From an uncultured Candidatus Saccharibacteria bacterium (GTDB taxonomy: Bacteria > Patescibacteriota > Saccharimonadia > Saccharimonadales > JAGQNK01): 64,000 bases of DNA. How positions within the stretch are numbered: position 1 is the first letter of the stretch; each line of letters starts with the position of its first letter. The stretch covers positions 11,345 to 75,344 of the forward strand of contig CAZWRS010000001.1 of assembly GCA_964636435.1 (NCBI GenBank), written 5' to 3'. This document shows positions 225-51,880 of this stretch, piece after piece. The notes under the pieces are model-generated. The model searched no databases, was not told the DNA's origin, and saw nothing but the letters and a program-made list of their open reading frames with translations. Both the position numbers and the translations under genes were made by a program.

Positions 225-1022
225 ATGAAAATATACTCTTGGAACGTGAACGGTATCCGCGCCGTGGTGCGAAAAGGTGAGTTTCAGAAGTTTATCGCCG
301 AGCATGATCCTGACATCCTGTGCCTCCAGGAAACCAAAGCGGAGCAGGGACAGGCTGAAATCGATCTGCCGCAGTACGAGGAGTACTGGAACTCATCACG
401 AACCCGCAAAGGTTACAGTGGTACCGCCATCTTCACTAAACCCAAGCCAATCGCCATCATAAACGATATCCCTGAAGCCTTCGTGAAGGCCGGCGGTCTG
501 GTGCTCGACAACTACGGCCACAGCAACGACGAGGGCCGGGTAATCGCTGCCGAGTATGACAACTTCTATGTCGTGACAGCCTACACGCCGAACGCCAAAG
601 ATGACCTGACGCGCATTCCGCTCCGACAGCAATGGGACAAGGCGATGATCGCCTACTGCGCCGACCTGCAGCAGAAAAAGCCCGTCATCTACTGCGGCGA
701 TATGAATGTCGCCCACACTGAAGATGATCTAGCTAATCCAGGACCGAATAAAGGTAAGAAAGGGTTCACCGAAGAAGAGCGGTCGGGCTTCGACAACTGG
801 CTGGCTGCTGGTTTCGTTGACACCTTCCGGATGTTCTACCAGGGCAATGGTTACTACACCTGGTGGAGCCACTTCGCCAAAAGTCGCGAACGTAACGTTG
901 GCTGGCGTATTGATTACTTCCTGGTGTCCGAATCGTTGAAAGACAGCGTTAAGTCAGCTGAGATCCACCCGGACCAAATGGGCTCTGACCACTGCCCAGT
1001 CAGCATCGAACTTGTTGTATAA
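225..1022 (+). CDS. xth: Exodeoxyribonuclease III / AP endonuclease (EEP family)
   Basis: MKIYSWNVNGIRA, LCLQETK, GDMNVAH, WRIDYF and SDHCPV motifs typical of ExoIII. Confidence 0.93.
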   Translation: MKIYSWNVNGIRAVVRKGEFQKFIAEHDPDILCLQETKAEQGQAEIDLPQYEEYWNSSRTRKGYSGTAIFTKPKPIAIINDIPEAFVKAGGLVLDNYGHSNDEGRVIAAEYDNFYVVTAYTPNAKDDLTRIPLRQQWDKAMIAYCADLQQKKPVIYCGDMNVAHTEDDLANPGPNKGKKGFTEEERSGFDNWLAAGFVDTFRMFYQGNGYYTWWSHFAKSRERNVGWRIDYFLVSESLKDSVKSAEIHPDQMGSDHCPVSIELVV

Positions 1023-1061
1023 ATTAAACAATGAGCGTATTCTCTGTGCTAGGAGAATAAA

Positions 1062-1718
1062 ATGCCAAAAAGAAAAACTAGTCCAAAGAAAGCTGCGTTT
1101 GCCAAGAATAGGGTCATCTATACAATCGTCGGGGTAGTGCTGCTCGCGGCCCTCGCCGCACAAATGTGGTTCAATCTGTTCATGTGGGACACCGCACAAA
1201 AACAAGCTGCTTTTCAAATGCGCTCCCTCCTCGTAGATTCGATACGGGGCATCGACAACATGCGTAGGATGCCACAAGATAATCGCATTCCCGAAGCACG
1301 CCTGTTATTACCGAAAGAAAATGCTGAGGTCGGACCCATCCGCTATCACTACAATGATTTCTACGAAGATGAACCGGTAACACTCAACGTCTCCAGTAAT
1401 AGCCTCGTTACCGCCGGTATCGGAATGATCAACACCAACGCAGAGAACATGGAGCGATTATTTGGCAATGTCGTCAAGAGTCAGGCCTGTGTTACAGGTT
1501 TTACCATCGCGTTTGACGAAAAATATGTAGGCGAACAGGGCGACGAAAACACTACAGGGGAATACTTAGCCGGTACCAAGCAGTTGGCAGACGGTCGAAC
1601 TATGTACCTCTGGCGGCAAAATAAATGTGGCAGCAGTGATTCTGACTCTAGCGACCACGCAACCCGCCAACTGATGAATGATCACGAAAAATACTTGCTG
1701 CAAATCGAGAGCTACTAA
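1062..1718 (+). CDS. Hypothetical membrane-anchored protein
   Basis: Basic N-terminus followed by one TM (VIYTIVGVVLLAALAAQMWF). AGGAG lies upstream of the ATG. No domain recognised. Confidence 0.6.
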   Translation: MPKRKTSPKKAAFAKNRVIYTIVGVVLLAALAAQMWFNLFMWDTAQKQAAFQMRSLLVDSIRGIDNMRRMPQDNRIPEARLLLPKENAEVGPIRYHYNDFYEDEPVTLNVSSNSLVTAGIGMINTNAENMERLFGNVVKSQACVTGFTIAFDEKYVGEQGDENTTGEYLAGTKQLADGRTMYLWRQNKCGSSDSDSSDHATRQLMNDHEKYLLQIESY

Positions 1719-1778
1719 AGACAATGCTTTGTGTCTGTGTATAGACGCTACATATAGCGCTTCTGATACACTTGCACT

Positions 1779-2492
1779 ATGAACAAATTTGCGGTTTTCG
1801 ATATCGACGGGACGCTCATTCGCTGGCAGCTGTATCACGTGATTGTTAATAAGCTCGCCAAAGCCGGAGCACTTGGACCGGAGGCGCAGGCCACGCTCAA
1901 AGCCGCAATGATGGCCTGGAAGCGCCGTGAAGACCAGAACTCCTTCAAGCAGTACGAAAGGAAGCTCATTGCACTGTACGAAGAAGCGCTGCAAAACATT
2001 AGCACGGAGCTTTTTGACCAGCTCGTGAGCGAGGTCATAGGAGAGTACAAAGACCAGTCCTATGTATACACCCGCGATTTACTGCAGCGACTGAAAAAAG
2101 ATGATTACAAATTATTCATCATCTCCGGCTCGCACCTGGAGCTGATCGAGCAAGTCGGTAAACACTACGGCTTTGATGACTGGATCGGCACGCATTATGA
2201 GCGGGCCGAACATACCTTTACCGGCCAAGTCACCATTTCAACACTCAAAAAAGACCAATCGCTTAAGCTACTGCTCGAGCGCAATGATGTCACCGTAGAG
2301 GGTAGTGTCGGCGTCGGCGATACCAAGAGCGACATACCGATGCTGGAAATGGTCGAGCAGCCGATTGCATTCAATCCGGACAGGGACCTCTTCACCGCTG
2401 CCCGGCAAAACGGCTGGAAAATCGTTGTCGAACGTAAAAACGTTATCTATGAACTGGAGCCGAGCAATGGGCAGTACCGACTACTGGCGTAG
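1779..2492 (+). CDS. HAD-IB family hydrolase (phosphoserine-phosphatase-like)
   Basis: HAD motif I FDIDGTL, motif II ISGS, motif III/IV K...GDTKSDIPM. Confidence 0.85.
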   Translation: MNKFAVFDIDGTLIRWQLYHVIVNKLAKAGALGPEAQATLKAAMMAWKRREDQNSFKQYERKLIALYEEALQNISTELFDQLVSEVIGEYKDQSYVYTRDLLQRLKKDDYKLFIISGSHLELIEQVGKHYGFDDWIGTHYERAEHTFTGQVTISTLKKDQSLKLLLERNDVTVEGSVGVGDTKSDIPMLEMVEQPIAFNPDRDLFTAARQNGWKIVVERKNVIYELEPSNGQYRLLA

Positions 2493-3291
2493 ACAAACGC
2501 CAGGTGAACCGCTGTTTCCGGACGTGCTCTGGAGCAGGCCAGAACAAAAGACTACCGCCGGCAAGCTACTGGTGATCGGCGGCAACCTCCACGCCTTTGC
2601 CGCACCCGCCGAAGCTTACAGTGAAGCCGAAAAAGCCGGTGTCGGCACGGTCCGCGTCATCCTACCCGATGCCACCAAAAAGATAGTCGGCCGCATCATG
2701 GAGCACGTCGAGTACGCCCCGAGTACACCGAGCGGCAGCTTCAGTCAGCCAGCGCTGGCTGAGCTGCTTGATACAGCCAGGTGGTCGGACGGCGTGCTGT
2801 TTGCTGGTGATCTGGGGCGCAATTCCGAAACCGCCATCTTGCTGGAAAAATTTGCCAGCAAATACTCCGGTCAGTTGACACTCGCTAAAGACGCTGCCGA
2901 CTACGTCGTGTCATCACCGGAAATAATCCGGGGCAGGGAGAACACGCTGCTCGTACTGAGCTTTGCACAGCTACAGAAGCTGGCGACCGCTGTTGGCTTC
3001 GATAAGCCGTTCACGTTTGACATGGACCTGCTACGCCTCGTCGAAGGCTTTCACGCCTTCACGGACATGTTTACTAGTCACCTCATCGTCAAACACCTCG
3101 ATCAAATCCACTGCGCCGTCAACGGCCAAGTCGTGAGCACCCGCCTAGAGCAAGATGTTGATATATGGCGGGTAAAAACAGCTACTCACGCGGCAGTCTG
3201 GTGGCTCCAAAACCCCGGCAGGCCGCTGGAGTCATTTGCCACCTCCCACGTAAATACTATCTCGTCACTAGATAAGAAGGGTCGTTGTTGA
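2467..3291 (+). CDS. YjeF C-terminal-like (carbohydrate-kinase fold) protein, degenerate
   Basis: GKLLVIGGNLHAFAAPAEAYSEAEKAGVG and DGVLFAGDLGRN resemble NAD(P)HX-dehydratase family motifs. Start placed at ATG 2467 (GGAG 11 nt upstream); the ORF-track start at 2305 overlaps the HAD gene. Last codons lie in direct-repeat copy 1. Confidence 0.5.
   Translation: MGSTDYWRRQTPGEPLFPDVLWSRPEQKTTAGKLLVIGGNLHAFAAPAEAYSEAEKAGVGTVRVILPDATKKIVGRIMEHVEYAPSTPSGSFSQPALAELLDTARWSDGVLFAGDLGRNSETAILLEKFASKYSGQLTLAKDAADYVVSSPEIIRGRENTLLVLSFAQLQKLATAVGFDKPFTFDMDLLRLVEGFHAFTDMFTSHLIVKHLDQIHCAVNGQVVSTRLEQDVDIWRVKTATHAAVWWLQNPGRPLESFATSHVNTISSLDKKGRC
3204..3246. repeat. Direct repeat copy 1 (43 bp)
   Basis: GCTCCAAAACCCCGGCAGGCCGCTGGAG is identical to 3910-3937, and the next 15 nt match at 11/15. 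Confidence 0.9.
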
Positions 3292-3838
3292 CATCATCGT
3301 ATAAGACTACCAGCTCTTTGAGGTCTTTTTCGTATAGGCCACTCGTCTGGATGGTCACTGGCCTTTTGAAATAGCACGGCTCTACGATGCCTACGCCCGG
3401 AACTTTTTCACATTCTATTTTTTCCTCCAGCACAAAGCGCAACACAATCAGTTTGTCACCGTTTCTGGCTTTTATGTCTATTCTCGAGATCTCTGAATTA
3501 CTACTTCCTCCGAGGCTGTCGAACTCATCGCTGATCGTATAACCTTGTTTTATTAAATTTTTCGTAACCTCATCGTACACGTCACCCAACGTCCCGCTTA
3601 CCATGAAGGTAGTCCGCGCAGGTGAGCTCGAGCCAGTTAGAATATCTCCGTTAGGCCTTGCCGAAGCTTTAGTCTCTTGGTCACTCAATATAACTAGGCT
3701 ATTTAAGTATTTTTCATTTTGCCGAGCTTCGAGCATCAGGTCTATCTGCAGCACATCATATATCCATAAAATTACCAGTACAAAAAATGCTACTAGCAAA
3801 CACACTGCGATGGTACGTTTTGTTTTGAAACTTAACAT
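3257..3838 (-). CDS. Hypothetical membrane-anchored protein on a low-GC insert
   Basis: 193 aa with an N-terminal TM (IAVCLLVAFFVLVILWIY). Hand counts of three 60-nt lines give 33-43% GC, against 57-70% in the upstream gene. The gene lies between the 43-bp direct repeats. Confidence 0.6.
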   Translation of the reverse strand: MLSFKTKRTIAVCLLVAFFVLVILWIYDVLQIDLMLEARQNEKYLNSLVILSDQETKASARPNGDILTGSSSPARTTFMVSGTLGDVYDEVTKNLIKQGYTISDEFDSLGGSSNSEISRIDIKARNGDKLIVLRFVLEEKIECEKVPGVGIVEPCYFKRPVTIQTSGLYEKDLKELVVLYDDVNNDPSYLVTR

Positions 3839-3909
3839 AATGCTTATGTTAACACATTAGCGACTAGCAGACGCCGTATCACCTCGAGGCATTGTGGCTT
3901 GTAATTGAT

Positions 3910-3952
3910 GCTCCAAAACCCCGGCAGGCCGCTGGAGCCACTTGCCACTTCT
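3910..3952. repeat. Direct repeat copy 2 (43 bp)
   Basis: Matches 3204-3246 and retains the same peptide frame (LQNPGRPLEPLATSL versus LQNPGRPLESFATSH). Confidence 0.9.
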
Positions 3953-4030
3953 TTGATTTCATATGACAGAAAATTCGTGACACCACGCTTAAAACCCATA
4001 CCACAACCCAATTGGATGAGGTTGTTATAT

Positions 4031-4118
4031 TGGTGCCGGAGGAGGGACTCGAACCCTCAAGCCGTAAAGGCATGCGATTTTGAGTCGCACGCGTATACCA
4101 ATTCCGCCACTCCGGCAC
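4031..4118 (-). tRNA. tRNA-Leu (anticodon CAA), CCA encoded
   Basis: The reverse complement folds as a cloverleaf: acceptor GTGCCGG/CCGGCAC, anticodon arm TGCGA-CTCAAAA-TCGCA, long variable arm, T-arm GAGGG-TTCGAGT-CCCTC, and terminal ACCA. Confidence 0.93.
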
Positions 4119-4260
4119 GGAGTAATTGACCGGGATATTGTACTATATTTTACCGTTCTCCTCCAGAGGAGAGGAGAGCAATTTCCATAAATGAACTAAC
4201 CCGCAGCCAAGCAGTGGGCTTATCAGGTATAATTAACCTGTTAGCGTAAGTTTATTGCCT

Positions 4261-5487
4261 ATGAACGACGATCATCCAAACTACCCAGATCTGAAGCGGA
4301 CCAAGAAAGTTATTGAGCCGCTACCTGGACAGACCGGTGGCCAAGAGCCGAATCCGGCGGTTGAGATGATTCGCAGCAAGATTGACGCGCTGTATGGCGA
4401 TGAGCCGGAAAAAAATACCGATACTCCTCCCAGCAACCAGCCAGCAGCTCCCCAGGCCACGAAGTCCAAGCACCAGCAGTACATGGATGAGCTCAGTAAC
4501 TCTGGGAAATCTTTGGCGGAAATCCAAGCTGCCTGGCACCAGTACTACGTCGACCTACCGAACCACGAAAAACATGAGGTCTGGCAGGAATTCTACGCCG
4601 AGCATCCCCGTCAAGATGACGAAGTTAAAAAAGCCCGGGTCCACCCGCAGCAACAAACAGAGCCGACTCAGACAGAACGGACTGCCAGCAAAGTAGACAA
4701 GCCCCAAGACCTGCGGTCTCTGTCTGAGATAAAGAGCCAGATCGTCAGCAAAGCCCGCGCCCGCTCAAAGCCCAAGAACCCGCACTTACAATCGCTGCTC
4801 TTTGGCCTCAGCATGGGCGCAGTCGTGGTGGTCATCATGCTGTTTGGCTTCTTCAATGAGCGCATCATTGCGCCGTTCATCACGCCGAGCCGCACCGTCA
4901 GCAGTACGCCAATCATCACCGATCCGAACTCGACCGCCGTCGGTAAAGACCCCAAAATCATCATCCCGAAGATCAATGTCGAAATCCCCGTCGTTTATGA
5001 TGAGCCATCCATTCAAGAGGACGCCGTCCAAAAGGCGCTGGAGCGCGGTGTGCTGCACTACGCCACCACGCCCAACCCGGGAGAGAAGGGCAATGCCGTT
5101 ATCTTCGGCCACTCCAGCAACAATATCTTAAACAGAGGTAAGTACAAATTTGCCTTTGTTCTGTTGTCTCGTCTCGAGGACGGTGATACGTTCATGCTCG
5201 AAAAGGATGGGCAGCGCTACGTCTATAAGGTCTTCCACAAAGAAGTCGTCGCGCCAACTGATCTGTCGGTCCTGGAAAATCACGGCGACAAATCTACCGT
5301 CACGCTCATCACCTGCGACCCACCGGGCACCACCATCAACCGCTTGGTAGTCGTGGGCGAACAAATCAGCCCGAGCCCGGCGAACAATGTCGCAAGCTCA
5401 GTGAGCAGGGATATGGCCAGTCGCACGCCGACCCAACTACCGAGCAATTCGCCCAGCCTCTGGTCCCGGATGACCAACTGGTTCTAG
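4261..5487 (+). CDS. Sortase family transpeptidase with long disordered N-terminal tail
   Basis: TLITCDP (TLxTC catalytic Cys), IFGHSSN (His) and NRLVVVGE (Arg). About 190 aa of Pro/Gln-rich sequence precede one TM. The ORF opens with TTG at 4255 and the first ATG is at 4261. Confidence 0.85.
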   Translation: MNDDHPNYPDLKRTKKVIEPLPGQTGGQEPNPAVEMIRSKIDALYGDEPEKNTDTPPSNQPAAPQATKSKHQQYMDELSNSGKSLAEIQAAWHQYYVDLPNHEKHEVWQEFYAEHPRQDDEVKKARVHPQQQTEPTQTERTASKVDKPQDLRSLSEIKSQIVSKARARSKPKNPHLQSLLFGLSMGAVVVVIMLFGFFNERIIAPFITPSRTVSSTPIITDPNSTAVGKDPKIIIPKINVEIPVVYDEPSIQEDAVQKALERGVLHYATTPNPGEKGNAVIFGHSSNNILNRGKYKFAFVLLSRLEDGDTFMLEKDGQRYVYKVFHKEVVAPTDLSVLENHGDKSTVTLITCDPPGTTINRLVVVGEQISPSPANNVASSVSRDMASRTPTQLPSNSPSLWSRMTNWF

Positions 5488-5603
5488 CTTTAATACACCC
5501 TGCTGAACTTTCGGCCTATCCTCGTCAACCAGAAAGCAATTAAGTTGCCCCTACGTCCGGAGAGCTGTGGTACAAAGAGTTCTACTGCTGTATACAAGAG
5601 TGC

Positions 5604-6659
5604 CTACATCGATGCAGCCATACGAAGCAGCTGATCGCTGCTCAAGGCTGAGTTGCCTTCGATCTGATACCACACGCCGCCATCTACCCAGGTGGCGCTA
5701 TTATCGTCATAGATATAAATCGTCTTGCCGCTGTTTTGGAAGGTCTGGTACGTCTTCTGGGCTGCTGCTAAGAAGTTTTCCTGCAATGCCTCACTGTTCC
5801 ACTGGGTAGCAGACTGGCTGACCTTGAACTGCCGATCATCAGACCGCGACGCATAATTCAGCACGATCTGACCGCTCTGGTACTGAATCGGCCCTGCCAG
5901 GCCAAAGCCCGACGGCTGATACCCTGGCAAAGTACCGTTTACGCCTGCCCGGGCGGTAGCCAGCTGCATGCTCAGATTGGGAATGTTCTGGTAGGCCACG
6001 AAACCGGTCAGCAGCATGATTGCCAGGCTCGCAGCTGCGATGTTGATGGTCCGATTACTGACCTTGAGCTTGCGTGACAACCGCTGGCGCCGCGTCGTCT
6101 TCTTGGCCTTGGGCTGCTTGTGGCTCGTCGCCTCATCGAGTGCTGTCTGGATGGCTTTTTGGTGTACCGAGGTGCGCTTGGCGATATCTGCTTTGCCGTG
6201 GGTCTTTAGTGCGGGCGGTTCCGCCGGTGCTGACTTGACAGGCAGGGCAGCGGTGACGGGGCGGACGGCTTTTTGTGATCCGCCAAATTTGCTAACCAGC
6301 GGACTTTTACGAACTGATTTAGCCCGCGTTATCCGCTTGGGATCTATATCGACATGAACCGAGGGCCGGGCTTTTCGAACCGTCGGCGCAGCTGCTTTCG
6401 GCTTCGATGCCACCGGCTTTTTCACGACATTGCGCATCAGGGTCTTGGACTTTTCGGTTTTGCGGTGCACGGCAGTCGCAGTCGTGCGGCTACGAGGCGC
6501 GGCTTTGGGGCGACGGGAAAAGCCATCGATACTACCACCGGCCTTGGCGGCCACTGGCTTCGAGCCCGGCTTTACGACCGTTGGACCGGTAACTACTTTG
6601 CCGGTTCTGGCATCATAACGTTTTCCATTCAATTCAATTGTATTCGACTTGGGTCTCAT
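5604..6659 (-). CDS. Membrane-anchored protein with DUF4367-like C-terminal domain
   Basis: Basic, disordered 200-aa N-terminus, one TM (INIAAASLAIMLLTGFVAY), and a C-terminal segment (GYQPSGF...IVLNY...ATWVDGGVWYQIEG...SSDQLLRMAASM) resembling DUF4367 from memory. Confidence 0.6.
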   Translation of the reverse strand: MRPKSNTIELNGKRYDARTGKVVTGPTVVKPGSKPVAAKAGGSIDGFSRRPKAAPRSRTTATAVHRKTEKSKTLMRNVVKKPVASKPKAAAPTVRKARPSVHVDIDPKRITRAKSVRKSPLVSKFGGSQKAVRPVTAALPVKSAPAEPPALKTHGKADIAKRTSVHQKAIQTALDEATSHKQPKAKKTTRRQRLSRKLKVSNRTINIAAASLAIMLLTGFVAYQNIPNLSMQLATARAGVNGTLPGYQPSGFGLAGPIQYQSGQIVLNYASRSDDRQFKVSQSATQWNSEALQENFLAAAQKTYQTFQNSGKTIYIYDDNSATWVDGGVWYQIEGNSALSSDQLLRMAASM

Positions 6660-6814
6660 TATGATTTTCGAATTTTACCCTCAAAAGTTTGTTCAAAAAG
6701 CTTCTGTTAAATATCTTACTCGCAGTCGCGAGACGATGCAATAGCGATCCATGAACCTATTTAGTATTCGCCTCCCGGGACCAGTGCGCTATACTTACAT
6801 ACGAGCAATTACTT

Positions 6815-8296
6815 ATGGATTTTCTCGACCCACGGAAAAAACGCGCCCACAAAATCAGGCTGTACATCGGCTATGCACTGATGGCCTGTGTACTGGTGAT
6901 CGGCAGCACCATTGTGTTCTTTGAGGCACGTGGCTTTGATATCGACCGCAAGACTGGCGAAATTATTCAAAACGGACTGGTTTTTGTAAATGCCCATCCG
7001 GAACCAGCGACCGTCTACGTAAACGGCAAGCGGGAGGGGCAGACGGATACACGGCTAACCATCCCGACCGGTGACTACACCTTCGAATTTACCCGTGACG
7101 GCTACCGGAACTGGCAGCGGTCGTTCCATCTGGACGGCAGCACGATAGAGCGGCTGGACTATGTATTCATGTTCCCCGAGCAGCTCGACACGGCAGCAAT
7201 TCGTAATTACAGCGCCCCACCACCTTTCGCCAGCCAGAGCCCTGATCGTAAGTGGCTGCTCGTTCAGCAGCCCGGGAATTTTCTCACGTTTGATGTTTTT
7301 GACCTCAGTAATCAGGATGATCCAGCGGTCACCTCCTTCACCTTGCCGGCCAGTCTTATGAACCGTACGGCCGGCGGCGACAAGCTGGAGCTGGTCGAGT
7401 GGTCAACCAACAATCGCCACGTGCTGGTGCGGCATACCTTCAAGGGCGGGAGTGAGTTCATCCTGATCGACCGACAGCAGCCGACCGAGAGCCTCAATCT
7501 CAACAGCCACTTCAACGTACCGATCCACAAAATTGCGCTGCGTGACAAGAAGTTCGATAAATTCCACATTCTGGACAAGCCAGGCGGTACCCTGCGCTTT
7601 GCCGACAGCAGGTCGAGGGAGGTCACTGACCTGGCAGAGCAGGTCTTTTCCTTTAAGTCATACAGCGATAATGTCATCTTTTACGTCACCGGTGCGAAAG
7701 CTGAAAAAGGCAAGGTTAACGTCAATATCAGGAGAGGTGATAAAACCTACACGGTACGCGAACTCACCGCCGGCGCGCGGTACCCAATCGATATCACACG
7801 CTATGACGACGAATGGTTCATGGCAGTCGGTAGCGACACTGACGCCAAGGCGTACGTGTACCACGAGGTCTTCCGTGATTTGGACCGCCAGCCTAGTCGC
7901 TCGCCAAGTCCGGTAGCAGTTTTCAGAGTCGATGATCTTGCCCATATCGCCGTGTCAGCCAACACCCGCTTCATCAGCGCTCAGGGCGGCAGCCGCTTCG
8001 CTGTCTACGATGCTGAGCATGATCGCCGCTACCAGTACGACACTAAATTAAAGTTTTCCGATGGCCAGAAAGCTACCTGGATGGATGGCCATCGCCTGAC
8101 GGCCGTCATAGATGGCAAGCTGCGCGCCTGGGATTACGACGGCATCAATATGCAGACGCTCGTCAGCGCTAACCCGGCCTATCTGCCGTTCTATGACCGG
8201 GATTACGACTTCCTCTACACCATTGCGCCGTCCAGTCAGGACAAAGCCGAGTCTACGCTTACCAAGACACCGATGCGTACGCCCGCCGACCTCTAG
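6815..8296 (+). CDS. PEGA-domain membrane protein with beta-propeller-like C-terminus
   Basis: N-terminal TM, PEGA-type segment PATVYVNGKREGQTDTRLTIPTGDYTFEFTRDGYRNW, then a long beta-rich region. Confidence 0.75.
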   Translation: MDFLDPRKKRAHKIRLYIGYALMACVLVIGSTIVFFEARGFDIDRKTGEIIQNGLVFVNAHPEPATVYVNGKREGQTDTRLTIPTGDYTFEFTRDGYRNWQRSFHLDGSTIERLDYVFMFPEQLDTAAIRNYSAPPPFASQSPDRKWLLVQQPGNFLTFDVFDLSNQDDPAVTSFTLPASLMNRTAGGDKLELVEWSTNNRHVLVRHTFKGGSEFILIDRQQPTESLNLNSHFNVPIHKIALRDKKFDKFHILDKPGGTLRFADSRSREVTDLAEQVFSFKSYSDNVIFYVTGAKAEKGKVNVNIRRGDKTYTVRELTAGARYPIDITRYDDEWFMAVGSDTDAKAYVYHEVFRDLDRQPSRSPSPVAVFRVDDLAHIAVSANTRFISAQGGSRFAVYDAEHDRRYQYDTKLKFSDGQKATWMDGHRLTAVIDGKLRAWDYDGINMQTLVSANPAYLPFYDRDYDFLYTIAPSSQDKAESTLTKTPMRTPADL

Positions 8297-8330
8297 TAAT
8301 CTCACCTCTGTTGTGCAATAATCCTTCACT

Positions 8331-9761
8331 ATGAACAAAGTTCGCACACGTTTTGCGCCCAGCCCAACCGGTTTCCTGCACGTCGGTGGCATCCGTACCG
8401 CACTATTCGCGTGGCTGGTTGCCCGGCAAAGTAGCGGGCAGTTTATCCTCCGGCTGGAAGACACTGACCAGAAACGGGAAGTGACCGGCTCTGCCGAACA
8501 CCTGGTTAAAAGCCTCCGAGCGCTCGGCCTGGATTATGACGAAGGCCCCGACATTGGTGGCGCCCATGGGCCGTATCGGCAATCTGAACGGCTCGACATA
8601 TACAGACAGTGGGCTCAAAAGCTCATCGAACAGGGCCGGGCGTACGCCGACCCCTACAGCCCGACAGAAGTCCAGCAGTTCCGGGAACAGGCCCAGAAAG
8701 AAAAGCAGCCATTTTTGTACCGTAACCATAGGCCAGATGCGCCACCGGCGTGGAATGGCAGTACGCCACTACGCTTTAAGTCGGACCCGAAGTCGTATCA
8801 GTGGCATGACGAAGTCATGGGCGAGCTGTCTACCGGCCCGGAAGTAATTGATGATTTTATCCTAATTAAGTCCGACGGCTTTCCAACCTATAACTTTGCC
8901 CACATCGTCGACGATGCCGAGATGGGTATCACGCATATTATCCGCGGCCAGGAGTTTATCGCCAGCATGCCGAATTACCTGAACCTCTACGAGGCACTGG
9001 GGCTCGATACCCCGGTTTTCGCCACCATGCCGCATATCTTAAATGAGCAGGGCAACAAGAAGCTGTCCAAGCGTGACGGCGCCAAAGACATTCTGGATTA
9101 CATTAGTGACGGCTATTTACCGGAAGCTCTGCGCAGCTTTATCGCGACGCTCGGCTGGAACGATGGTACGGAGCAGGAAATCTTCACGACTGATGAGCTG
9201 GTCCAGAAATTCAGCCTGGAGCGCGTCGGCAAAAGCGGCGCCCACTTTGACAAGCGCCGGCTCAACTGGGTCAATGGCCACTTTATCCGTGAAATGCCGC
9301 TGGACGAGCTGTACGAGCGCGTCACCGAGTACTGGCCACCAGAGGCACGTGACTACGATGATTCATACAAAAAACAAGTTCTCGGCCTCGTCCAGGAACG
9401 ACTGAAGTACTTCGCCGAATTGCCCGAGCTGACGATATTCTTTTTCAAGGACCTGCCGATGAACCCGGAACTCATCAGCGGCCACAAGCAGCTCAAGAAA
9501 ATCGCGTCCGAAGATCTAACAACGCTCCTGCAAGCAGTTGTCGCCGAGCTGGAGCCGAGCGACTTCAGTGTAGAAGATCTTACCAACCGGCTTAATGGGC
9601 TACTGACGCTCACCCATACCAAGCCAGCCGTACTATTCAGCCTCATCCGCATTGCCGCTACACAGGCGCCAGCCAGCCCCGGCCTGGCCGAAACCCTGCA
9701 CGTGCTTGGCAAGGAAACTTCCATGCAGCGCATCCAGAAACAGCTCGCCGCACTCAGCTAA
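8331..9761 (+). CDS. gltX: Glutamyl-tRNA synthetase
   Basis: RFAPSPTGFLHVGGIRTALF (HIGH-type motif), KLSKRDG (KMSKS-type motif), class I GluRS length. Confidence 0.95.
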   Translation: MNKVRTRFAPSPTGFLHVGGIRTALFAWLVARQSSGQFILRLEDTDQKREVTGSAEHLVKSLRALGLDYDEGPDIGGAHGPYRQSERLDIYRQWAQKLIEQGRAYADPYSPTEVQQFREQAQKEKQPFLYRNHRPDAPPAWNGSTPLRFKSDPKSYQWHDEVMGELSTGPEVIDDFILIKSDGFPTYNFAHIVDDAEMGITHIIRGQEFIASMPNYLNLYEALGLDTPVFATMPHILNEQGNKKLSKRDGAKDILDYISDGYLPEALRSFIATLGWNDGTEQEIFTTDELVQKFSLERVGKSGAHFDKRRLNWVNGHFIREMPLDELYERVTEYWPPEARDYDDSYKKQVLGLVQERLKYFAELPELTIFFFKDLPMNPELISGHKQLKKIASEDLTTLLQAVVAELEPSDFSVEDLTNRLNGLLTLTHTKPAVLFSLIRIAATQAPASPGLAETLHVLGKETSMQRIQKQLAALS

Positions 9762-23271: not shown

Positions 23272-23366
23272 CGAGCCTGTCAAAAATTTTATATGCTATT
23301 CATATGGCTCTGTTTCAGAAAAATCCCCATAGCGACCGACAGCATCAACCGCTATTTTCCGCCGGC

Positions 23367-23945
23367 ATGAACAAGACTGCGCTGATCATCGGCCTCGGTA
23401 ACATCGGCAAGGAATATGACCAGACTCGGCATAATATTGGCTTCGCTTGCCTGGATGCATTTGCCGAAGCGCATGAGTTCGATGACTGGATCGAAAAGAA
23501 AGACCTAAAGTGCCACATGACTATGAAGACGCTCGGAGATACCCGCGTGATACTCTGCAAGCCCACGACTTTCATGAACTTAAGCGGTGAAGCGGCACAA
23601 AAAGTCGCGCATTTTTATAAGATTCACCGTGATCACATCGTTGCCGTGCACGACGAGCTGGCTATCAAGTTTGGTCAGATTCGCACACGCACTGGCGGCT
23701 CTGATGCAGGGAATAATGGGGTCAAGTCACTGATGACGCACATTGGCGCGGATTTTGGACGAATTCGTGTCGGCATCGATGGCGATAAGCCAGCAAGTAT
23801 GGATAGCGCTGACTATGTCCTGGCTAAATTCACCAAGGACGAGCAGGCGCATCTCCCAGCGCTCACCCGCGAAGTAACCAGCATTCTTACCGAGTATGTC
23901 TTCTCCGGCCAGCTCGCCAATGACACCCGTAACTTCCTGATATAA
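23367..23945 (+). CDS. pth: Peptidyl-tRNA hydrolase
   Basis: LIIGLGNIGKEYDQTRHNIGF and HDELAI...GGSDAGNNGVKS. ATG 23367 is preferred over the upstream in-frame ATG at 23304. Confidence 0.9.
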   Translation: MNKTALIIGLGNIGKEYDQTRHNIGFACLDAFAEAHEFDDWIEKKDLKCHMTMKTLGDTRVILCKPTTFMNLSGEAAQKVAHFYKIHRDHIVAVHDELAIKFGQIRTRTGGSDAGNNGVKSLMTHIGADFGRIRVGIDGDKPASMDSADYVLAKFTKDEQAHLPALTREVTSILTEYVFSGQLANDTRNFLI

Positions 23946-23959
23946 ATAAAAACAGGCCT

Positions 23960-24340
23960 CCGAGAGGGGGTGGGCACCGCTCGAAGACCTGATTTCAGGG
24001 AATAATCCGAAAATTATTCCCAATACCCTTCAACCCACCCCAGCGAAGCACCGCGCACCAAAACTCCAAAAAGTGGCGTGCCTCCACCCATACGGGCGGA
24101 ATCTTTTAGGACTCGCTTTGAATCGGGGACCAATACAGCCAGGGCCGTATTGGGCTAGTTAAAGGGGTTAGTTTGTTTTAGAACGTTGCCCCCTTATAAG
24201 GTGGGGCACCGCTAGCATAAGTGGAGGGTAACAACTTATATAGCCGTTCTAAAACAATCTAACGTATATCCCGAATAACGGGATGTTAGAATAGGGGTAT
24301 AAGGTACGTAAACCTCTTATGCGAGGGTTACAGATTGCTA
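23960..24340. ncRNA. Structured noncoding region, family and strand unresolved
   Basis: No ORF. Perfect helices: 23967-23974/24034-24041, 23983-23986/24028-24031, hairpin 23998-24021, 24130-24136/24147-24153, 13-bp helix 24173-24185/24245-24257, 24217-24222/24234-24239, 24258-24263/24285-24290, hairpin 24268-24284. Confidence 0.5.
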
Positions 24341-24483
24341 TTTTAGCAAATTTATTATCTTTGTCAACACCTATTTTACTTTTTTCCAACTTTATTCATA
24401 AGCATAACTGTTGAGCATCACTTTTAAGATGCACACAGCCTGCAGAGACGACGGCCAGCCATTTGTGCCGCTCAAGTACGTGT

Positions 24484-24511
24484 TGAAACTCCTATCTCTG
24501 CTTGCATAATC
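24484..24511 (+). promoter_or_regulatory. Candidate promoter upstream of topA
   Basis: TTGAAA (24484-24489), 16 nt spacer, CATAAT (24506-24511). A second -10-like TACAAT (24561-24566) sits 7 nt before the ATG. Confidence 0.4.
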
Positions 24512-24573
24512 TATTTTCTTAAAGTACTGTTATTGGCTGTGGCGCGTTTTACCGCTACACTACAATAATACTT

Positions 24574-26886
24574 ATGCCTAAAAATTTAGTAATCGTTGAG
24601 AGCCCGGCCAAAGCCAAGACTATCGAGAAATACCTCGGCAGCGACTTCAAGGTGCTTTCCTCCGTCGGCCACATCCGCTCGATTGCCAAGAAAGCCAAAG
24701 ACGGTGGTGATGCCATAGATATTAAAAACGGCTTTGCGACCACCTACGAGGTTGATCCGGAGAAGAAAAAGGTCATCACTGAGCTCAGGAAGGCTGTAAA
24801 AGCAGCCGATGACGTCTGGCTGGCGACTGATGAAGACCGCGAAGGAGAGGCTATTGCCTGGCATTTGTGCGAGGTACTGAAGCTGGACCCAAGCAAGACT
24901 AAGCGCATCGTCTTTCACGAAATTACTAAAGGTGCTATTGAAGAAGCTATCAAGAACCCGCGTACCGTGGACATGGACCTCGTGCGCGCTCAGCAAGCTC
25001 GGCAGATCCTCGACCGAATCGTTGGCTTTGACCTGTCTGACGTCGTCCGTAAAAAGGTGCCTGGCGGCATCAGTGCCGGCCGTGTGCAATCACCGGGCGT
25101 GAAACTGCTCGTCGAGCGCGAGCGTGAGATAGACGCGTTCGAGAGTTCGTTCAAATTCCGCATCACCGCGGAGTTCGAGGCACATGGCGATACGTTCAGG
25201 GCTGAGCTGCCGAGGCGCTTCGACACCGAAGAAGAAGCCCGAGCGTTCCTGGAGAGCCTGCGAGACGCCACCTTCACCGTCAGTGATGTCAAAAAGAGCC
25301 CCGCCACCCGTAATCCAAGCGCACCATTTACCACCAGCACCCTGCAACAGGATGCTAACAGCAAACTCGGCTTTAGCACCAAAGCGACCATGGCTGCCGC
25401 CCAGAAGCTCTACCAGGAAGGTAAAATCACCTACATGCGAACCGACTCGGTCAACCTGAGCGGCCAAGCATTAGCTCAAATGACGGACTACATTAAGTCG
25501 ACGTTCGGCAGCGAGTATCACCAGGTGCGAACGTTCAAGACTAAGAGCTCCAGCGCCCAAGAAGCCCACGAAGCCATCCGTCCGACCGACGTCCGCGCTG
25601 AAAAGGTCAGTAGTGACGAATACAACCAGAAGCTCTACGACCTCATCCGCCGCCGGACGCTCGCCAGCCAGATGGCGCCGGCCAAGCTGGAGAAAACAAC
25701 TGCTACCATTACCATCTCGACCAGCCAGGAGGTTTTCGAGGCCAAGGGTGAAGTTATTGTCTTTGATGGATTCCTTAAAGTCTATGGCGGCAGCAAAAAA
25801 GAGGCCGATACGCTGCCCGCTCTCAGCACCAGCGATCCATTAGACCTGCAAACTGCCCAGGCCAGGCAGATGTTCGCCAAGCCGCCGGCTCGCTACACCG
25901 AAGGAAGTCTGGTCAAGAAGCTCGAAGAGCTTGGCATTGGCCGGCCAAGCACCTACGCCACGATTATCAACACGATCCAGGCACGCGGCTACGCCGTCAA
26001 GGGCGAATCTGAAGGAAAGCCACGTGATATCATCACGCTGAACCTTGAGGGCAACCAGGTCAACAGAGATATCATCCAGGAAAAAACCGGCTCCGACAAA
26101 GGCAAGCTCGTGCCGACAGCCCGTGGCATGGTAATGAGTGATTTCCTCGACAACCATTTTAACCCAATCGTTGATTATGGTTTTACCGCCAATGTCGAGG
26201 AAGACTTTGACGAAATAGCCGAGGGCAAACTCGACCGCAATAAAATGCTGCAGGAATTCTATACGCCGTTCCAGGAGCTCATCGAAAAGTCTGGCGGCAT
26301 TGACCGCAGCGAAGTAGCCCAGGCCAGGGAGGTCGGCACTGACCCGAAGACGGGCAAAGCCGTTTATGCTCGCTTCGGCCGCTTTGGCCCAATACTACAA
26401 CTAGGCGCTACCGAAGATAAAGATGATAAACCGCAGTTTGCCCCTTTGCCGCGCGGCACCAAAATCGAGACCGTCACGCTGGAGCAGGCACTCAAAGCAT
26501 TCGAACTGCCGCGCGTTGTCGGCCAGACCGACGACGGTCAAGAAATAAAGGCCAACATCGGCCGCTTCGGACCCTACATTCAGGTCGGAAAGCTGTTTGT
26601 GTCAATCAAGCCACTCGATCCGCACACCATTACCCTTGATGAAGCCAAGGAGCTTTACGCAGCCAAGCTAAAGAGTGAGGCCGAGAAAAACATCGCTGAC
26701 TTTGGCGATGGCATTAAGGTCCTAAGGGGTCGCTACGGGCCGTACATTACCGACGGCAAGAAAAACGCCAAGATTCCGAAAGACACCGATCCCGAATCAA
26801 TCACACATGAGCAGGCAAAGAAACTTATTGCTGAAGCGCCAGCTGCTAAAAAACGCTTCGCCCGCCGCAAGGTTGCCAAGAAATAG
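24574..26886 (+). CDS. topA: DNA topoisomerase I (type IA)
   Basis: Toprim LVIVESPAKAKTIEKYLG and DEDREGE, active-site ITYMRTDS. The C-terminal repeats carry GRFGPY-type motifs (RFGRFGPILQ, IGRFGPYIQ, RGRYGPYIT) rather than Cys4 zinc ribbons. Lys-rich tail. Confidence 0.95.
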   Translation: MPKNLVIVESPAKAKTIEKYLGSDFKVLSSVGHIRSIAKKAKDGGDAIDIKNGFATTYEVDPEKKKVITELRKAVKAADDVWLATDEDREGEAIAWHLCEVLKLDPSKTKRIVFHEITKGAIEEAIKNPRTVDMDLVRAQQARQILDRIVGFDLSDVVRKKVPGGISAGRVQSPGVKLLVEREREIDAFESSFKFRITAEFEAHGDTFRAELPRRFDTEEEARAFLESLRDATFTVSDVKKSPATRNPSAPFTTSTLQQDANSKLGFSTKATMAAAQKLYQEGKITYMRTDSVNLSGQALAQMTDYIKSTFGSEYHQVRTFKTKSSSAQEAHEAIRPTDVRAEKVSSDEYNQKLYDLIRRRTLASQMAPAKLEKTTATITISTSQEVFEAKGEVIVFDGFLKVYGGSKKEADTLPALSTSDPLDLQTAQARQMFAKPPARYTEGSLVKKLEELGIGRPSTYATIINTIQARGYAVKGESEGKPRDIITLNLEGNQVNRDIIQEKTGSDKGKLVPTARGMVMSDFLDNHFNPIVDYGFTANVEEDFDEIAEGKLDRNKMLQEFYTPFQELIEKSGGIDRSEVAQAREVGTDPKTGKAVYARFGRFGPILQLGATEDKDDKPQFAPLPRGTKIETVTLEQALKAFELPRVVGQTDDGQEIKANIGRFGPYIQVGKLFVSIKPLDPHTITLDEAKELYAAKLKSEAEKNIADFGDGIKVLRGRYGPYITDGKKNAKIPKDTDPESITHEQAKKLIAEAPAAKKRFARRKVAKK

Positions 26887-39889: not shown

Positions 39890-41155
39890 CTATCCTCGGT
39901 TGATTTGCTTTATGCGCTGCGCAAACCACTTGGCGCTGGGTCGAACTTTGCGCTGCATACCATTCTGACGGTCAATCTCCACCAGACCGAACTTTGGCCA
40001 CCAGCCATACTTCCATTCGAAGTTATCGAGCAAACTCCAGTGCAGATAGCCGCGCACGTCTACACCCTCACTAATCGCCTTCTCCATAGCCACGATCGTC
40101 TCTTCAAGCCACCAGCGTCGATAGTCATCGCTGGCATCAGCGAGGCCGTTTTCGGTAATAAATATCGGTTTTTTGTAATGCGACCAGACCCGCAGCAGCA
40201 ACGGATGCAGCCCCTCCGGTTCCATGTACCATCCCAGATCATTAAGAGGCACCTTCGGATTATCGCGCCGAAAACCGCGGTAATAGTCACTGAAATAGTA
40301 ATTGAAGCCAATAAAGTCCTGCTCGTTCCGGCAGCGGTTCAAAAACCACCAATTCCAGTAGTAGCGCATCCACTTCGTAGCGATCGTGTCGATAATATTA
40401 TGCGGCCGCTTGGCCTGGATGTTGGCTAGCTGTGCTGCGAGACCAATCTGTAGCTGTGGTTTTTGCCGCTTAAGGATATGATACGCCTCTTTGTGTGCCC
40501 GAAGCAGATTGCGGTAGACAGTAATACCGGTCCAGACGTTTTTCTCTTCCGGTGGCCACTCGCCCACTATATAGCTAAAGGTCGTGTAAACATTCGGCTC
40601 GTTCAGAGTAATGATATATGTCAAATCATCCACTAGCTCGTCGGCAACCTTTTGTATGAATCGGGAGAAGTACCGTACGTTGCTCCGCTGCTTGAACCCA
40701 CCTTTTTCGGCAAACCACGTCGGTACGGTCCAATGCCAGAGGTTGGCAAATGGCTCAATACGACGAGTACGCAGCTCACGGATGTATTTCCGGTAGTGTT
40801 CAATCGCCACCTCATCCCACTTCCCTTCCTCGGGCTCGATACGCGACCATTCAATGCCGAAACGAAAAGCATTCAAGTTAAGCTGCTGGAGAATATCAAA
40901 GTCTTCTTTATACCGCTTAAAGTGATCGACCCCGCGCCCAGAAATGTAATTTTCGGGTAATTCCGCCTGGATCTTGATGTCATCCCACTTGGGCAAGCCG
41001 CTAATACGTGTGTGCGCCAGCTGCGAAAACTCCTTTGCGTTCGCTAACTCCCAGACTGACCACTGATTTACATTACCTCCCTCGACCTGATGTGCTGCCG
41101 TACTCGCTCCCCAAAAAAAATGCTTCGGGAAATAATTGTTGGTTTTGTCTTCCAT
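39890..41155 (-). CDS. GH1 family beta-glucosidase
   Basis: FFWGASTAAHQVEG, acid/base TLNEPN, nucleophile ITENG, WSLLDNFEW. Confidence 0.9.
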   Translation of the reverse strand: MEDKTNNYFPKHFFWGASTAAHQVEGGNVNQWSVWELANAKEFSQLAHTRISGLPKWDDIKIQAELPENYISGRGVDHFKRYKEDFDILQQLNLNAFRFGIEWSRIEPEEGKWDEVAIEHYRKYIRELRTRRIEPFANLWHWTVPTWFAEKGGFKQRSNVRYFSRFIQKVADELVDDLTYIITLNEPNVYTTFSYIVGEWPPEEKNVWTGITVYRNLLRAHKEAYHILKRQKPQLQIGLAAQLANIQAKRPHNIIDTIATKWMRYYWNWWFLNRCRNEQDFIGFNYYFSDYYRGFRRDNPKVPLNDLGWYMEPEGLHPLLLRVWSHYKKPIFITENGLADASDDYRRWWLEETIVAMEKAISEGVDVRGYLHWSLLDNFEWKYGWWPKFGLVEIDRQNGMQRKVRPSAKWFAQRIKQINRG

Positions 41156-50530: not shown

Positions 50531-51880
50531 CTAACCTTGTACGCTGTCTATAAGCTTTTCGATACCTACTCGCTCTTGCTCAGTTGTGTCACGATCACGA
50601 ATGGTTACCGCGCCATCCTCCAGCGTGTCGAAATCTATGACAACACAGTATGGTGTACCGATTTCGTCCTGGCGGCGATAGCGTTTACCGATATTGCCGT
50701 TGTCGTCCCACATGACATTACCGACGTCTTTCTTTAGCATAGTGTATACTTCGCGGGCTTTTTCTACCAACTCCGGCTTGTTTTTAAGCAGCGGTGATAC
50801 GGCTATGCGGTATGGCGCCAACTCCGGCTTGAGCTTAAGTACCACGCGTTTTTCCCCGTGTACCTCTTCTTCATGATATGCATCTGTCAGGACAGCTAGG
50901 AACATACGGCCGACTCCAACTGATGATTCGATAACGTATGGCAGGAATCGCTCACGCGTAGCATCATCAAAGTACTGTAGATCTTTACCACTGACCCGCT
51001 GATGATTTCCGAGGTCAAAGTCAGTTCGATTATGCGTACCCCACAGTTCCTTAAAACCCTGAGGAAAATTGAAGTAAATATCATGTGCAGCTGCCGCATA
51101 ATGAGCTCGCTCATTCTCTGCATGCTCATGCCACTGCAAATTCTGCTCATCAATACCAAGGCGATCAGTCAAGAACTCCCATGCAAACTCACGCCAGTCT
51201 TCATACGCCTTCCCTTGGTCTTCTGGGCGGATGAAATACTGCATCTCCATCTGCTCGAGCTCACGAACGCGAAAGATAAAATCACGCGGGCTGATTTCGT
51301 TACGAAACGCCTTACCTATCTGAGCAACACCAAATGGTAATTTAGCCCGCATAGTCTCACGAACATTTTCATAGTTAGTAAAGATTGAGCCAGCTGTCTC
51401 TGGGCGCAAATACGCGATTGATGACTCATCCTCTACTGGGCCCACCCAGGTTTTCATCATCATGTTATATGTCCGTGGCTCAGTCAGCGCTTTCTTGCCG
51501 CAAGTCGGACAGGCCTTATCTTTGAGCAGACCTGCCAGCTCTTTTAGGTCGGTAGAATCTGTGCCAGCTAAATGGTCGGCGCGGTGCCGTGCGCCACAAT
51601 TTTTGCAGTCCACCAATGGATCCGTAAAACCAGCCACGTGGCCACTTGCTTCCCAAAGCCGGGGATTTTGGATAATAGCGCCGTCGACACCGAAAATATT
51701 CTCACTTTCGGTAACCATAGCCTTCCACCATTCAGCTTTGATTTTATTAACCAGCTCAACGCCGAGCGGACCATAATCCCAAAAACCAGCCAAGCCGCCA
51801 TATATTTCTGACGCCTGAAAAACAAACCCTCGGCGCTTGCACAGGCTGACAATATCTTCCATTTTTACAGATTCTTTCAT
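50531..51880 (-). CDS. glyQS: Glycyl-tRNA synthetase (alpha2 dimeric, class II)
   Basis: RGFVFQASEIYGG, YLRPETAGSIF, FRNEISPRDFIFRVRELEQME, C-terminal anticodon-binding domain. Confidence 0.95.
   Translation of the reverse strand: MKESVKMEDIVSLCKRRGFVFQASEIYGGLAGFWDYGPLGVELVNKIKAEWWKAMVTESENIFGVDGAIIQNPRLWEASGHVAGFTDPLVDCKNCGARHRADHLAGTDSTDLKELAGLLKDKACPTCGKKALTEPRTYNMMMKTWVGPVEDESSIAYLRPETAGSIFTNYENVRETMRAKLPFGVAQIGKAFRNEISPRDFIFRVRELEQMEMQYFIRPEDQGKAYEDWREFAWEFLTDRLGIDEQNLQWHEHAENERAHYAAAAHDIYFNFPQGFKELWGTHNRTDFDLGNHQRVSGKDLQYFDDATRERFLPYVIESSVGVGRMFLAVLTDAYHEEEVHGEKRVVLKLKPELAPYRIAVSPLLKNKPELVEKAREVYTMLKKDVGNVMWDDNGNIGKRYRRQDEIGTPYCVVIDFDTLEDGAVTIRDRDTTEQERVGIEKLIDSVQG

Follow-up and report, generated by a model that had tools for sequence, protein, structure and literature searches.

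What occupies the gap between pth and topA in this genome? The window analysed here is a 64,000-nt stretch of DNA from an uncultured Candidatus Saccharibacteria bacterium (contig CAZWRS010000001.1 of assembly GCA_964636435.1), in which pth (Pfam Pept_tRNA_hydro) lies at 23304-23945 and topA at 24574-26886, both on the plus strand. An earlier reading of the letters alone (the sequence-only reading) had noticed about 630 bp between the two genes with no credible open reading frame (ORF) and had proposed that a densely base-paired noncoding RNA lies there, either a divergent known one or a new one. The gap was indeed found to be 628 nt long, with ORFs of only 30-46 aa inside. Our results showed that it holds a conserved structured element on the minus strand, with a predicted transcript of ~389 nt (23947-24335), which very probably is a real, new, trans-acting structured RNA gene. 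The mechanism that we propose for it, in which an invariant loop near its 3' end acts as a docking module, is tentative when taken by itself, and to the combined reading, a new trans-acting structured RNA of Saccharibacteria with a docking-module mechanism, we assign a probability of roughly 0.55.

The loci of relatives were collected via the Pth protein, whose close relatives were nearly all found in metagenome-assembled genomes of Saccharibacteria / Saccharimonadales. In 43 of the 52 Saccharibacteria-like loci nhmmer detected the element at full length on the downstream side of pth, and three others have it interrupted or truncated by the end of a contig, which brings the total to 46 of 52; in the remaining six, no more than 1.4 kb of sequence follows pth. 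None of the 28 pth loci from outside the Saccharibacteria gave an nhmmer match to the element. An exact 17-mer from the terminator loop described below retrieved at least 120 contigs from a metagenome sample, at least 65 of which carried the full RNA and about 15 or more a copy broken by the contig end; fished by the loop sequence, this sample is biased to members that retain that loop. Saccharibacteria genomes and metagenomes together contained at least ~110 full-length homologues. In these 110 loci, 92 of 93 pth genes lay 3' of the RNA and 66 of 66 topA genes lay 5' of it, in each case on the strand opposite to the RNA, at distances of 2-3300 nt from pth and 300-2750 nt from topA. The element was single-copy at this fixed locus among the loci examined. 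The Pth proteins of the relatives are only 48-65% identical, yet the single-stranded blocks of the RNA are invariant. From the -10 box to just beyond the terminator the homologues measured 304-511 nt. The block conserved by nhmmer was bounded at ~23944 on one side and at ~24375-24385 on the other, covering the promoter; the extent of 23950-24340 proposed earlier thus captured a real element and stopped short of its conserved promoter end.

Folding and covariation support a structured RNA at this place. The 400-nt core folded at -156.6 kcal/mol on the minus strand (z = -8.06), the plus strand gave z = -4.05, and none of 100 shuffles reached the observed energy on either strand. Homologues were aligned with MAFFT in a set of 39 sequences, analysed with tools, and a set of 99, analysed by script; the variable hairpins were poorly aligned by MAFFT and were judged instead from per-sequence folds. 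The same fold emerged from RNAalifold, from folding each sequence singly, from pair counts and from a scan for mutual information. In the 39 sequences the curated structure was 93.6% paired, 28 pairs showed changes on both sides (16.2±2.1 in column shuffles), and the covariation score was 0.261, against 0.130 in the shuffles and at most 0.074 when the partners were slid. On all five measures, 0 of 500 shuffles reached the observed value. These controls leave some phylogenetic signal; the slid-partner control keeps the phylogeny and was decisively lower all the same, and compensation exceeded both the shuffled and the slid controls. When the curated helices were forced on the window RNA, the energy was -156.1 kcal/mol, 0.5 above the unconstrained minimum of -156.6. 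The covariation among about 100 homologues is strong and confirms the structured RNA that the sequence-only reading had suspected; of its two alternatives, our data favour the new one. That reading had named missing covariation, or alignment to a decayed protein-coding gene in relatives, as what would speak against it, and neither was found. The overlapping short ORFs of the gap are what a decayed protein gene or a mobile-element remnant could leave behind, and such an origin has next to no chance in view of indels of every length in the hairpins, conserved blocks that pair with each other, abundant compensation and the single copy at a fixed locus.

The strand was read from three features. 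In the supported helices of the 99 non-identical sequences we counted 4443 Watson-Crick, 405 G·U and 62 A·C pairs, and since G·U pairs would be A·C mismatches on the opposite strand, this asymmetry identifies the RNA with the minus strand. On the same strand a promoter scan found a -35 hexamer TTGACA (24362-24367; 11/12), followed after a spacer of 16 nt by an extended -10 element TGCTAAAAT (TGcTAAAAT; 24340-24348, with TAAAAT itself at 24345-24340) that the homologues also showed. Of 104 homologues, 85 had TTGACA as their -35 and 8 had TTGACT; 80 had a spacer of 17 nt and 22 one of 16 nt; 97 had the TG extension; and at the -10, 71 had TAAAAT and 19 had TAGAAT. At the other end stands a terminator hairpin (23953-23991) with a 12-bp stem and a 15-nt loop, CGGUGCCCACCCCCU (23965-23979), followed by UUUUU at 23948-23952 as read from the sequence. 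The stem showed double changes at 11 of its 12 pairs, the loop was invariant in the 99 sequences, and a T-run of at least three stood behind the terminal hairpin in 104 of 104 homologues. The sequence-only reading had already taken a minus-strand T-run at this place as a hint of a transcript end. At the level of sequence, the conserved -35, spacer and extended -10 together with the G+C-rich hairpin and U-run make up a sigma-70-type transcription unit, and because promoter and terminator are conserved, the ends are predicted at ~24335 (±2) and, within the U-run, at ~23947. On these sequence features the strand is the minus strand, and a plus-strand RNA was ruled out by the G·U/A·C asymmetry, the promoter and the terminator.

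Does the RNA belong to a known family? With Rfam 15 (4227 models) at gathering score, the window gave two tRNAs only and 17 related loci gave nothing. The Rfam scan that had been suggested earlier returned no family for the element, and a search relaxed to E≤10 and lax filters gave only scattered miRNA-type hairpin matches and similar noise for this element and for two of its divergent homologues (L035 and L023). The RNase P models RF00010 and RF00011 had no match in the window element or L035, and in L023 they gave nothing beyond a 9.4-bit fragment that covers the terminator on the wrong strand. The conserved RNase P regions CR-I (GAGGAAAGUCC) and CR-V (ACAGAAnnCGGCUUA) were absent from 23946-24385 on both strands at 2 and 3 mismatches, in agreement with the sequence-only reading, which had not found the universal RNase P elements in order; the RNase P-like strings that it pointed out lie on the antisense, non-transcribed strand and are coincidence. 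ARAGORN found no tmRNA in the window, and the Rfam tmRNA model gave only a 6.1-bit partial match at 24308-24377, over the RNA 5' end and the promoter. There was no Rfam match to 6S or signal recognition particle (SRP) RNA, and the supported fold is multi-branched, not rod-like. OLE, ROOL, GOLLD, raiA, HEARO and the rest of Rfam 15 gave no match at the element or its hairpin in the window, the 17 related loci and 26 viral loci. RNase P, tmRNA, 6S and SRP were therefore ruled out by Rfam at two thresholds, ARAGORN, motif searches and the literature.

The possibility that a universal RNA (RNase P RNA, tmRNA, 6S RNA or SRP RNA) is present in highly divergent form draws on the size of ~390 nt and the housekeeping-like promoter, which would suit RNase P or tmRNA, and on the report that RNase P RNAs of the candidate phyla radiation (CPR) have diverged and fall below Rfam thresholds (PMC8172020). 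The same study, with lowered thresholds, recovered an RF00010-type RNase P RNA in 35 of 35 circular CPR genomes, two Saccharimonadia among them (PMC8172020). With this report, with no match at E≤10 on three divergent copies nor at gathering score in the 17 loci, and with a conserved terminator end in place of a 5'/3' closing helix or a tRNA-like end, this explanation is very improbable. A TM7x transcriptome preprint states that no small RNAs have been validated, and no description of such an RNA was found in open-access text. Within Rfam 15 and the searchable literature, the RNA family is an undescribed one.

Several further likenesses were set aside as coincidences without an Rfam match, namely those to 5S rRNA (GCGGUGGUCCCACC), to 16S helix h44 and the anti-Shine-Dalgarno (anti-SD) sequence, to the acceptor end of tRNA-His and to a Cas9 repeat (GUUUUAGAGC). 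The last string corresponds to bases 1-10 of the Streptococcus pyogenes Cas9 repeat, which we take to be coincidence. It stands at the 5' strand of helix P3 (24245-24258, minus) in most relatives, and the window has GUUUUAGAAC there. For a Cas9 tracrRNA:crRNA or an IscB/TnpB omega RNA, no nuclease neighbour, no array nearby and no HEARO match was found, and the segment 5' of GUUUUAGAGC is conserved, unlike a variable guide.

The fold consists of two directly abutting multi-helix domains and the 3' terminator hairpin, and invariant blocks alternate in it with hairpins of freely varying length. On the minus strand, from the 5' end, the hairpin H1 (24308-24331) keeps most of its outer GUAA/UUAC pairs around a variable, poorly aligned inner stem (helix 1, 76.8% paired). 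It is followed by the single-stranded block B1, GUACCUUAUACCCC (24294-24307), whose ACCUU was invariant in the conservation profile of the 99 sequences and for which the mutual-information scan of the same sequences found no covarying partner. UCUAAC and a variable hairpin H2 (24264-24290) are optional and were absent from 6 of the 99 sequences.

Domain 1 is closed by P3, 18 bp around an A·A mismatch, in which the 5' strand GUUAG-A-UUGUUUUAGAACG (24245-24263) pairs with the 3' strand CGUUCUAAAACAA-A-CUAAC (24167-24185); the consensus is GUUAG-A-UUGUUUUAGARCG / CGYUCUAAAACAA-A-CUAAC. Its compensatory changes included UA to CG, UA to AU (19 sequences) and GC to AU; in the 99 sequences, pair 89/161 was UA in 76 and AU in 19, and pair 93/157 was GC in 61, AU in 16 and GU in 12. 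P3 closes a three-way junction with the arms P3a and P3b, and the same junction appeared in the per-sequence folds of 24 of 24 homologues. P3a (24219-24237) is an AAGU/ACUU hairpin with an invariant 11-nt loop, UGUUACCCUCC, in which the ACCCUCC bases are at least 97% conserved, and P3b (24187-24208) is a variable branch ranging from 5 bp to ~60 nt in relatives. In the deeper-branching loci L024, L011, L050, L035, L028, L018 and L041, P3b is much longer and contains a conserved sub-motif (..UUAGUAUA..GGCAAUUGCUUAAGCUA..), which suggests a domain added in that clade.

Domain 2 begins with no linker after P3. Its closing helix P4 pairs CCCUUUAAC (24158-24166) with GUUGAAGGG (24026-24034), and all P4 pairs were kept in 99 of 99 sequences, the last pair (182/306) being CG in 86, GC in 10 and AU in 3. 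In L354, which has a minimal second domain, P4 is compensated (GCCUUUAAC/GUUGAGGGC), and the P4 of L276 is likewise compensated. The domain holds H4, P5, P6, H5 and H6. H4 (24130-24154) is a variable hairpin seen in the per-sequence folds, and H5 (24083-24100) is another, seen also in the constrained fold. P6 pairs AGCGAG (24112-24117) with UUCGCU (24042-24047; helix 5, 96.2% paired; consensus AGYGAG/UUCRCU), and its pair 225/296 was CG in 38, UA in 26 and UG in 22 of the 99 sequences. H6 (24047-24082), with the 5' strand GGCRC..., was recognised by the mutual-information scan from pairs 259/292 (GC 61, AU 21), 261/290 (AU 41, GC 24) and 263/287 (GC 34, AU 30). The block B6, GGUGGGUUGAAGGGU (24025-24039), combines an invariant GGUGG with the 3' strand of P4, as the conservation profile and pair counts showed. 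Between domain 2 and the terminator, the hairpin H7 (23998-24021) is optional; many relatives lack it and L276 has an expansion of ~190 nt. L043 has, ~100 nt beyond the terminator of its RNA, a second, incomplete copy of the terminator loop and 3' stem (4693-4748), which may be the remnant of a duplication.

Every helix named by the sequence-only reading was located in the window (GGGAATAAT/ATTATTCCC at 23998/24013, TTGTTTTAGAACG/CGTTCTAAAACAA at 24173/24245, TCTAAC/GTTAGA at 24258/24285 and ATCCCG/CGGGAT at 24268/24279, as well as AATAGGGGTATAAGGTACG at 24290). Two of its points held in part. The strings TCTAAC and GTTAGA are present, but the helix drawn between them was rejected: changes in GTTAG are matched by changes in the CTAAC downstream and not in the TCTAAC upstream, so that GTTAG pairs with CTAAC. 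The 10-mer GGGCACCGCT does occur in both halves, at 23972 and 24204, but the second copy sits in the variable arm P3b and is confined to the closest relatives (L002, L034 and L001 carry TAGCGGTG..., and the other sequences do not).

What, then, holds the terminal loop invariant? A tertiary pairing of the loop GGUGCC with GGCRC was rejected, GGCRC being the 5' strand of H6 by mutual information, and no tertiary contact received covariation support in the scan of 99 sequences. The GGUGG of B6 is complementary to CCACC of the terminal loop, both sides being invariant and the B6 side overlapping P5. If the RNA were catalytic, or a subunit of a ribonucleoprotein enzyme, GGUGG could be a guide that recognises substrates tagged with CGGUGCCCACCCCCU, with the RNA's own 3' hairpin occupying the site in cis. 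Invariant junction and loop nucleotides between varying peripheral hairpins, like those of RNase P and group I introns, would suit such an enzyme, and so would the tagged hairpins, described next, that stand in phage intergenic regions, in operon leaders and by tRNA-like sequences or tRNA arrays, where processing sites are expected. We nevertheless regard it as quite unlikely: the complementarity spans 5-8 nt, is invariant on both sides and overlaps P5, and neither covariation for the tertiary contact nor a link to a known ribozyme fold was found.

The same loop occurs outside the large RNA. The exact 15-mer CGGUGCCCACCCCCU had 87 matches in a viral-contig collection, and 48 of these were loops of hairpins whose stems of 5-18 bp differed between loci (a few duplicate or closely related contigs share stems) while the closing G-C pair was always kept. 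The chance background per 15-mer in the viral contigs is ~40-60 matches, and control 15-mers from the same RNA (B6 and the P3a loop) gave 62 and 42 stretches, chance or coding apart from L153. The other blocks of the RNA were accordingly rejected as modules shared with phages, their matches being only of chance or coding kind; L153 is the sole viral contig with a full-length copy. About 15 or more further stand-alone loop hairpins were found among the metagenome matches, which makes at least 60 loop hairpins outside the large RNA (L081-L166 viral, L269-L388 metagenome). Variant loops were essentially absent from the 3 Mb of fetched loci, the sole case being a 1-nt deletion in L047; where other genetic elements bear it by itself, the loop is as constrained as in the large RNA. 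No Rfam family covered the hairpin in the 26 viral loci scanned, and neither the loop hairpin nor the recurrent phage intergenic element that contains it was present in 50,697 GenBank phage records. Taken by itself, the loop hairpin may represent a new and widespread RNA motif associated with phages.

The settings of these hairpins vary. Several stand-alone ones have their own -10-like box and U-tract, often with another hairpin upstream; others cap a longer helix, lie in operon leaders or intergenic regions and, in a few cases, inside open reading frames. A recurrent head-module element consists of a UGA stop (..GTTGA), the loop hairpin, a second hairpin CCAGC-UUU-GCUGG, a AATAGAACAAATCTAAAGGAG/Shine-Dalgarno (SD) site and the next gene, and was found in L087, L093, L106, L109, L117, L123, L134, L135, L137 and L339; in L135, a 729-aa portal/adaptor-like protein and an 80-aa ORF precede it, and a 271-aa ORF follows immediately. 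In L113 (~9440-9600) and L114, a tRNA-like T-arm and acceptor 3' strand (..GGTTCGAGTCCTGCCTCCCCGA) precede the hairpin, and the matching acceptor 5' strand and D-arm (GGGGAGTAGCTCAGTTGG..) follow it, an arrangement that in sequence resembles a tRNA that is permuted or split by an intron; no tRNA was called at this site by ARAGORN or Rfam. In L088 (8663-12020), a phage contig, the loop hairpin stands ~450 nt upstream of a 75-nt sequence scored by Rfam as tmRNA (53 bits, tRNA-like part only) and of a 16-tRNA gene array.

In the contig L153 (IMGVR_UViG_3300049064_000004), which is labelled as viral, the region 700-8444 includes the complete RNA (7931-8370) and, in the position of dprA-topA in relatives, a mobile-element block with genes for RecT, an FtsK/exonuclease-like protein and two DNA methyltransferases. 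A second, inverted loop hairpin lies in its RecT operon leader (6863-6877). This contig shows that at least one hairpin-bearing element lives in a saccharibacterium. A phage attP/attB site was rejected as an account of the hairpins: their stems are unshared, no integrase was found beside ten stand-alone copies (10 flanking proteins), and the L153 copies are inverted, not direct.

The mobile element beside the RNA in L153 is also one of the points that would favour a role in cis, as a bidirectional terminator or 3' untranslated region of pth, a dprA/topA leader, or a recombination or attachment site at the DNA level. The fixed synteny and the closeness to pth point the same way, the U-run ending 3 nt from the pth stop codon (23943-23945). 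By the G·U asymmetry, however, it is the strand antisense to pth and topA that is under selection, the element has its own conserved promoter, the distances to its neighbours vary over the ranges given above, and the missing integrase and inverted copies speak against an attachment site, so that a cis element is a highly improbable explanation.

In the docking reading, the fold would be a scaffold that displays invariant single-stranded C-rich elements, namely ACCUU..ACCCC, the P3a loop UGUUACCCUCC and the terminal loop CGGUGCCCACCCCCU, and these would serve as recognition surfaces. The RNA would be a stable, constitutively made ribonucleoprotein or hub RNA and not a cis regulator. Because the stand-alone hairpins have no other part of the RNA with them, the invariance of the loop would not come from an intramolecular contact, and the loop is probably read in trans; because transcripts of phages and mobile elements carry an identical loop on unrelated stems, it is a likely docking site. 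The terminal hairpin would thus be a portable module whose loop most likely docks a putative trans factor, a protein or a G-rich RNA segment, and the phage copies would use this docking factor or compete for it. A more specific version, somewhat unlikely, makes the RNA the core of a Saccharibacteria-specific ribonucleoprotein or ribozyme system, with the 3' loop as a tag and phage mini-hairpins that hijack or titrate the reader of the tag. These mini-hairpins would be made from their own promoters, in operon leaders, or beside tRNA-like sequences.

The C-rich loops allow another explanation, in which the RNA is a base-pairing regulator of the RNAIII/RsaE type that would pair its exposed CCUCC, CCCC and CCCCCUC with G-rich, SD-like stretches of mRNAs and so stop their translation, perhaps preferentially that of foreign or phage messages led by SD sites in a host with mostly leaderless messages of its own. 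The motifs are invariant and unpaired, the P3a and terminator loops contain the exact anti-SD core CCUCC, and a C-rich seed is likewise a feature of the RNAIII terminator hairpin. SD sites are found at only ~10-11% of host genes versus 37-65% in the hairpin-bearing viral contigs. For a seed-type small RNA, on the other hand, the strictly conserved complex multi-domain fold is unusual; blocks of 11-17 nt remained invariant at a Pth identity of only 48-65%, and CGGUG beyond the C-runs is equally invariant. No target was identified, and the phage hairpins share the polarity of the host loop and so are not targets. A version in which the RNA is an anti-SD sponge is weakened by the rarity of SD sites in the host. 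We consider a base-pairing regulator unlikely.

Several observations weigh against the docking reading as well. The invariant loops show no covariation, and two G residues needed for the contact of GGUGG with CCACC are also claimed by P5. Neither a protein nor an RNA was identified as a partner. No gene co-varies in position with the RNA, and pth, dprA and topA give no functional hint. The stand-alone transcription unit itself, with its transcription, ends and abundance, is a prediction. The difference in SD use, 37-65% in hairpin-bearing contigs and ~10% in Saccharibacteria chromosomal loci, many of whose genes have a leaderless appearance, also belongs here, and some hairpin-bearing phages may infect other hosts.

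Among known systems, the RNA can be compared with the large ornate noncoding RNAs (OLE, ROOL, GOLLD, raiA, HEARO), whose functions are unknown or only now emerging, and with which it shares a size of 300-500 nt, a multi-domain fold, strong covariation, invariant junctions and loops set apart by variable hairpins, restriction to a lineage and a link to phages; GOLLD and ROOL are often phage-borne. It differs from them in having no Rfam 15 match, in being single-copy at a fixed housekeeping locus in a CPR lineage, and in sharing only its 3' hairpin loop, not the whole RNA, with phages. RNase P RNA (RF00010/RF00011) is similar in size, in its stable-RNA-like gene, in the conserved core with a variable periphery and in a GGU-containing loop, whereas here P4 with CR-I/CR-V, a P1 closing helix and a covariance-model match are lacking. 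Staphylococcus aureus RNAIII and the RsaE/RoxS-type small RNAs also combine several hairpins with C-rich loops, including that of the terminator hairpin; the present RNA has far deeper conservation of sequence and fold, no embedded ORF and a host with few SD sites. Phage RNA mimics, such as pseudo-ToxI repeats and the RNA anti-CRISPRs that copy CRISPR repeats, are likewise stand-alone phage copies of a host RNA module, at some copies with their own promoter and terminator, but here the loop alone is copied and the stems differ. The boxB of lambda-type nut sites resembles the loop hairpin in its free stem, invariant loop and placement in operon leaders or intergenic regions, and differs from it in a loop of 5 nt instead of 15; the loop hairpin, moreover, often doubles as an intrinsic terminator, and no boxA or N-like protein was identified with it.

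Saccharibacteria (TM7) are ultrasmall episymbionts with genomes of ~1 Mb, and a ~400-nt RNA gene with an invariant core at one locus across them is likely to have an important role. The number of known large structured RNAs in bacteria is small, and every one of them led to new biology, as with RNase P, tmRNA, OLE and the guide RNA of IscB, which was originally reported as HEARO. That the portable loop recurs on unrelated stems suggests a reader acting in trans and, perhaps, that phages mimic a host RNA; if the tag reading were true, such mimicry would centre on a new RNA machine, essential or defensive, in a lineage of minimal genomes. Cultured, genetically tractable Saccharibacteria exist, so the RNA is directly testable, and with a covariance model an intergenic region that recurs as apparently empty could be annotated in hundreds of CPR genomes.

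In the window, the neighbours of the RNA gene are der, pth and topA, and dprA is also among the neighbours in relatives. The gene is convergent with pth and divergent from (dprA-)topA. In most relatives, including one with an 83% identical Pth, dprA separates topA from the promoter of the RNA. In the window this interval is only ~190 nt long (24386-24573), and tblastn found no dprA anywhere in the 64 kb; the gene is lost or moved in this genome. An SD-like motif, even a loose purine-rich one, preceded 14 of 49 hand-listed gene starts in the window, and a stricter count gave ~11% of window ORFs. A TATAAT-like box stands within ~15 nt of the start codon at many window genes (for example 24574, 26929, 39890-41155, 50531-51880 and 52368-52865), a pattern which suggests that leaderless or very short-leader mRNAs may be widespread in this host.

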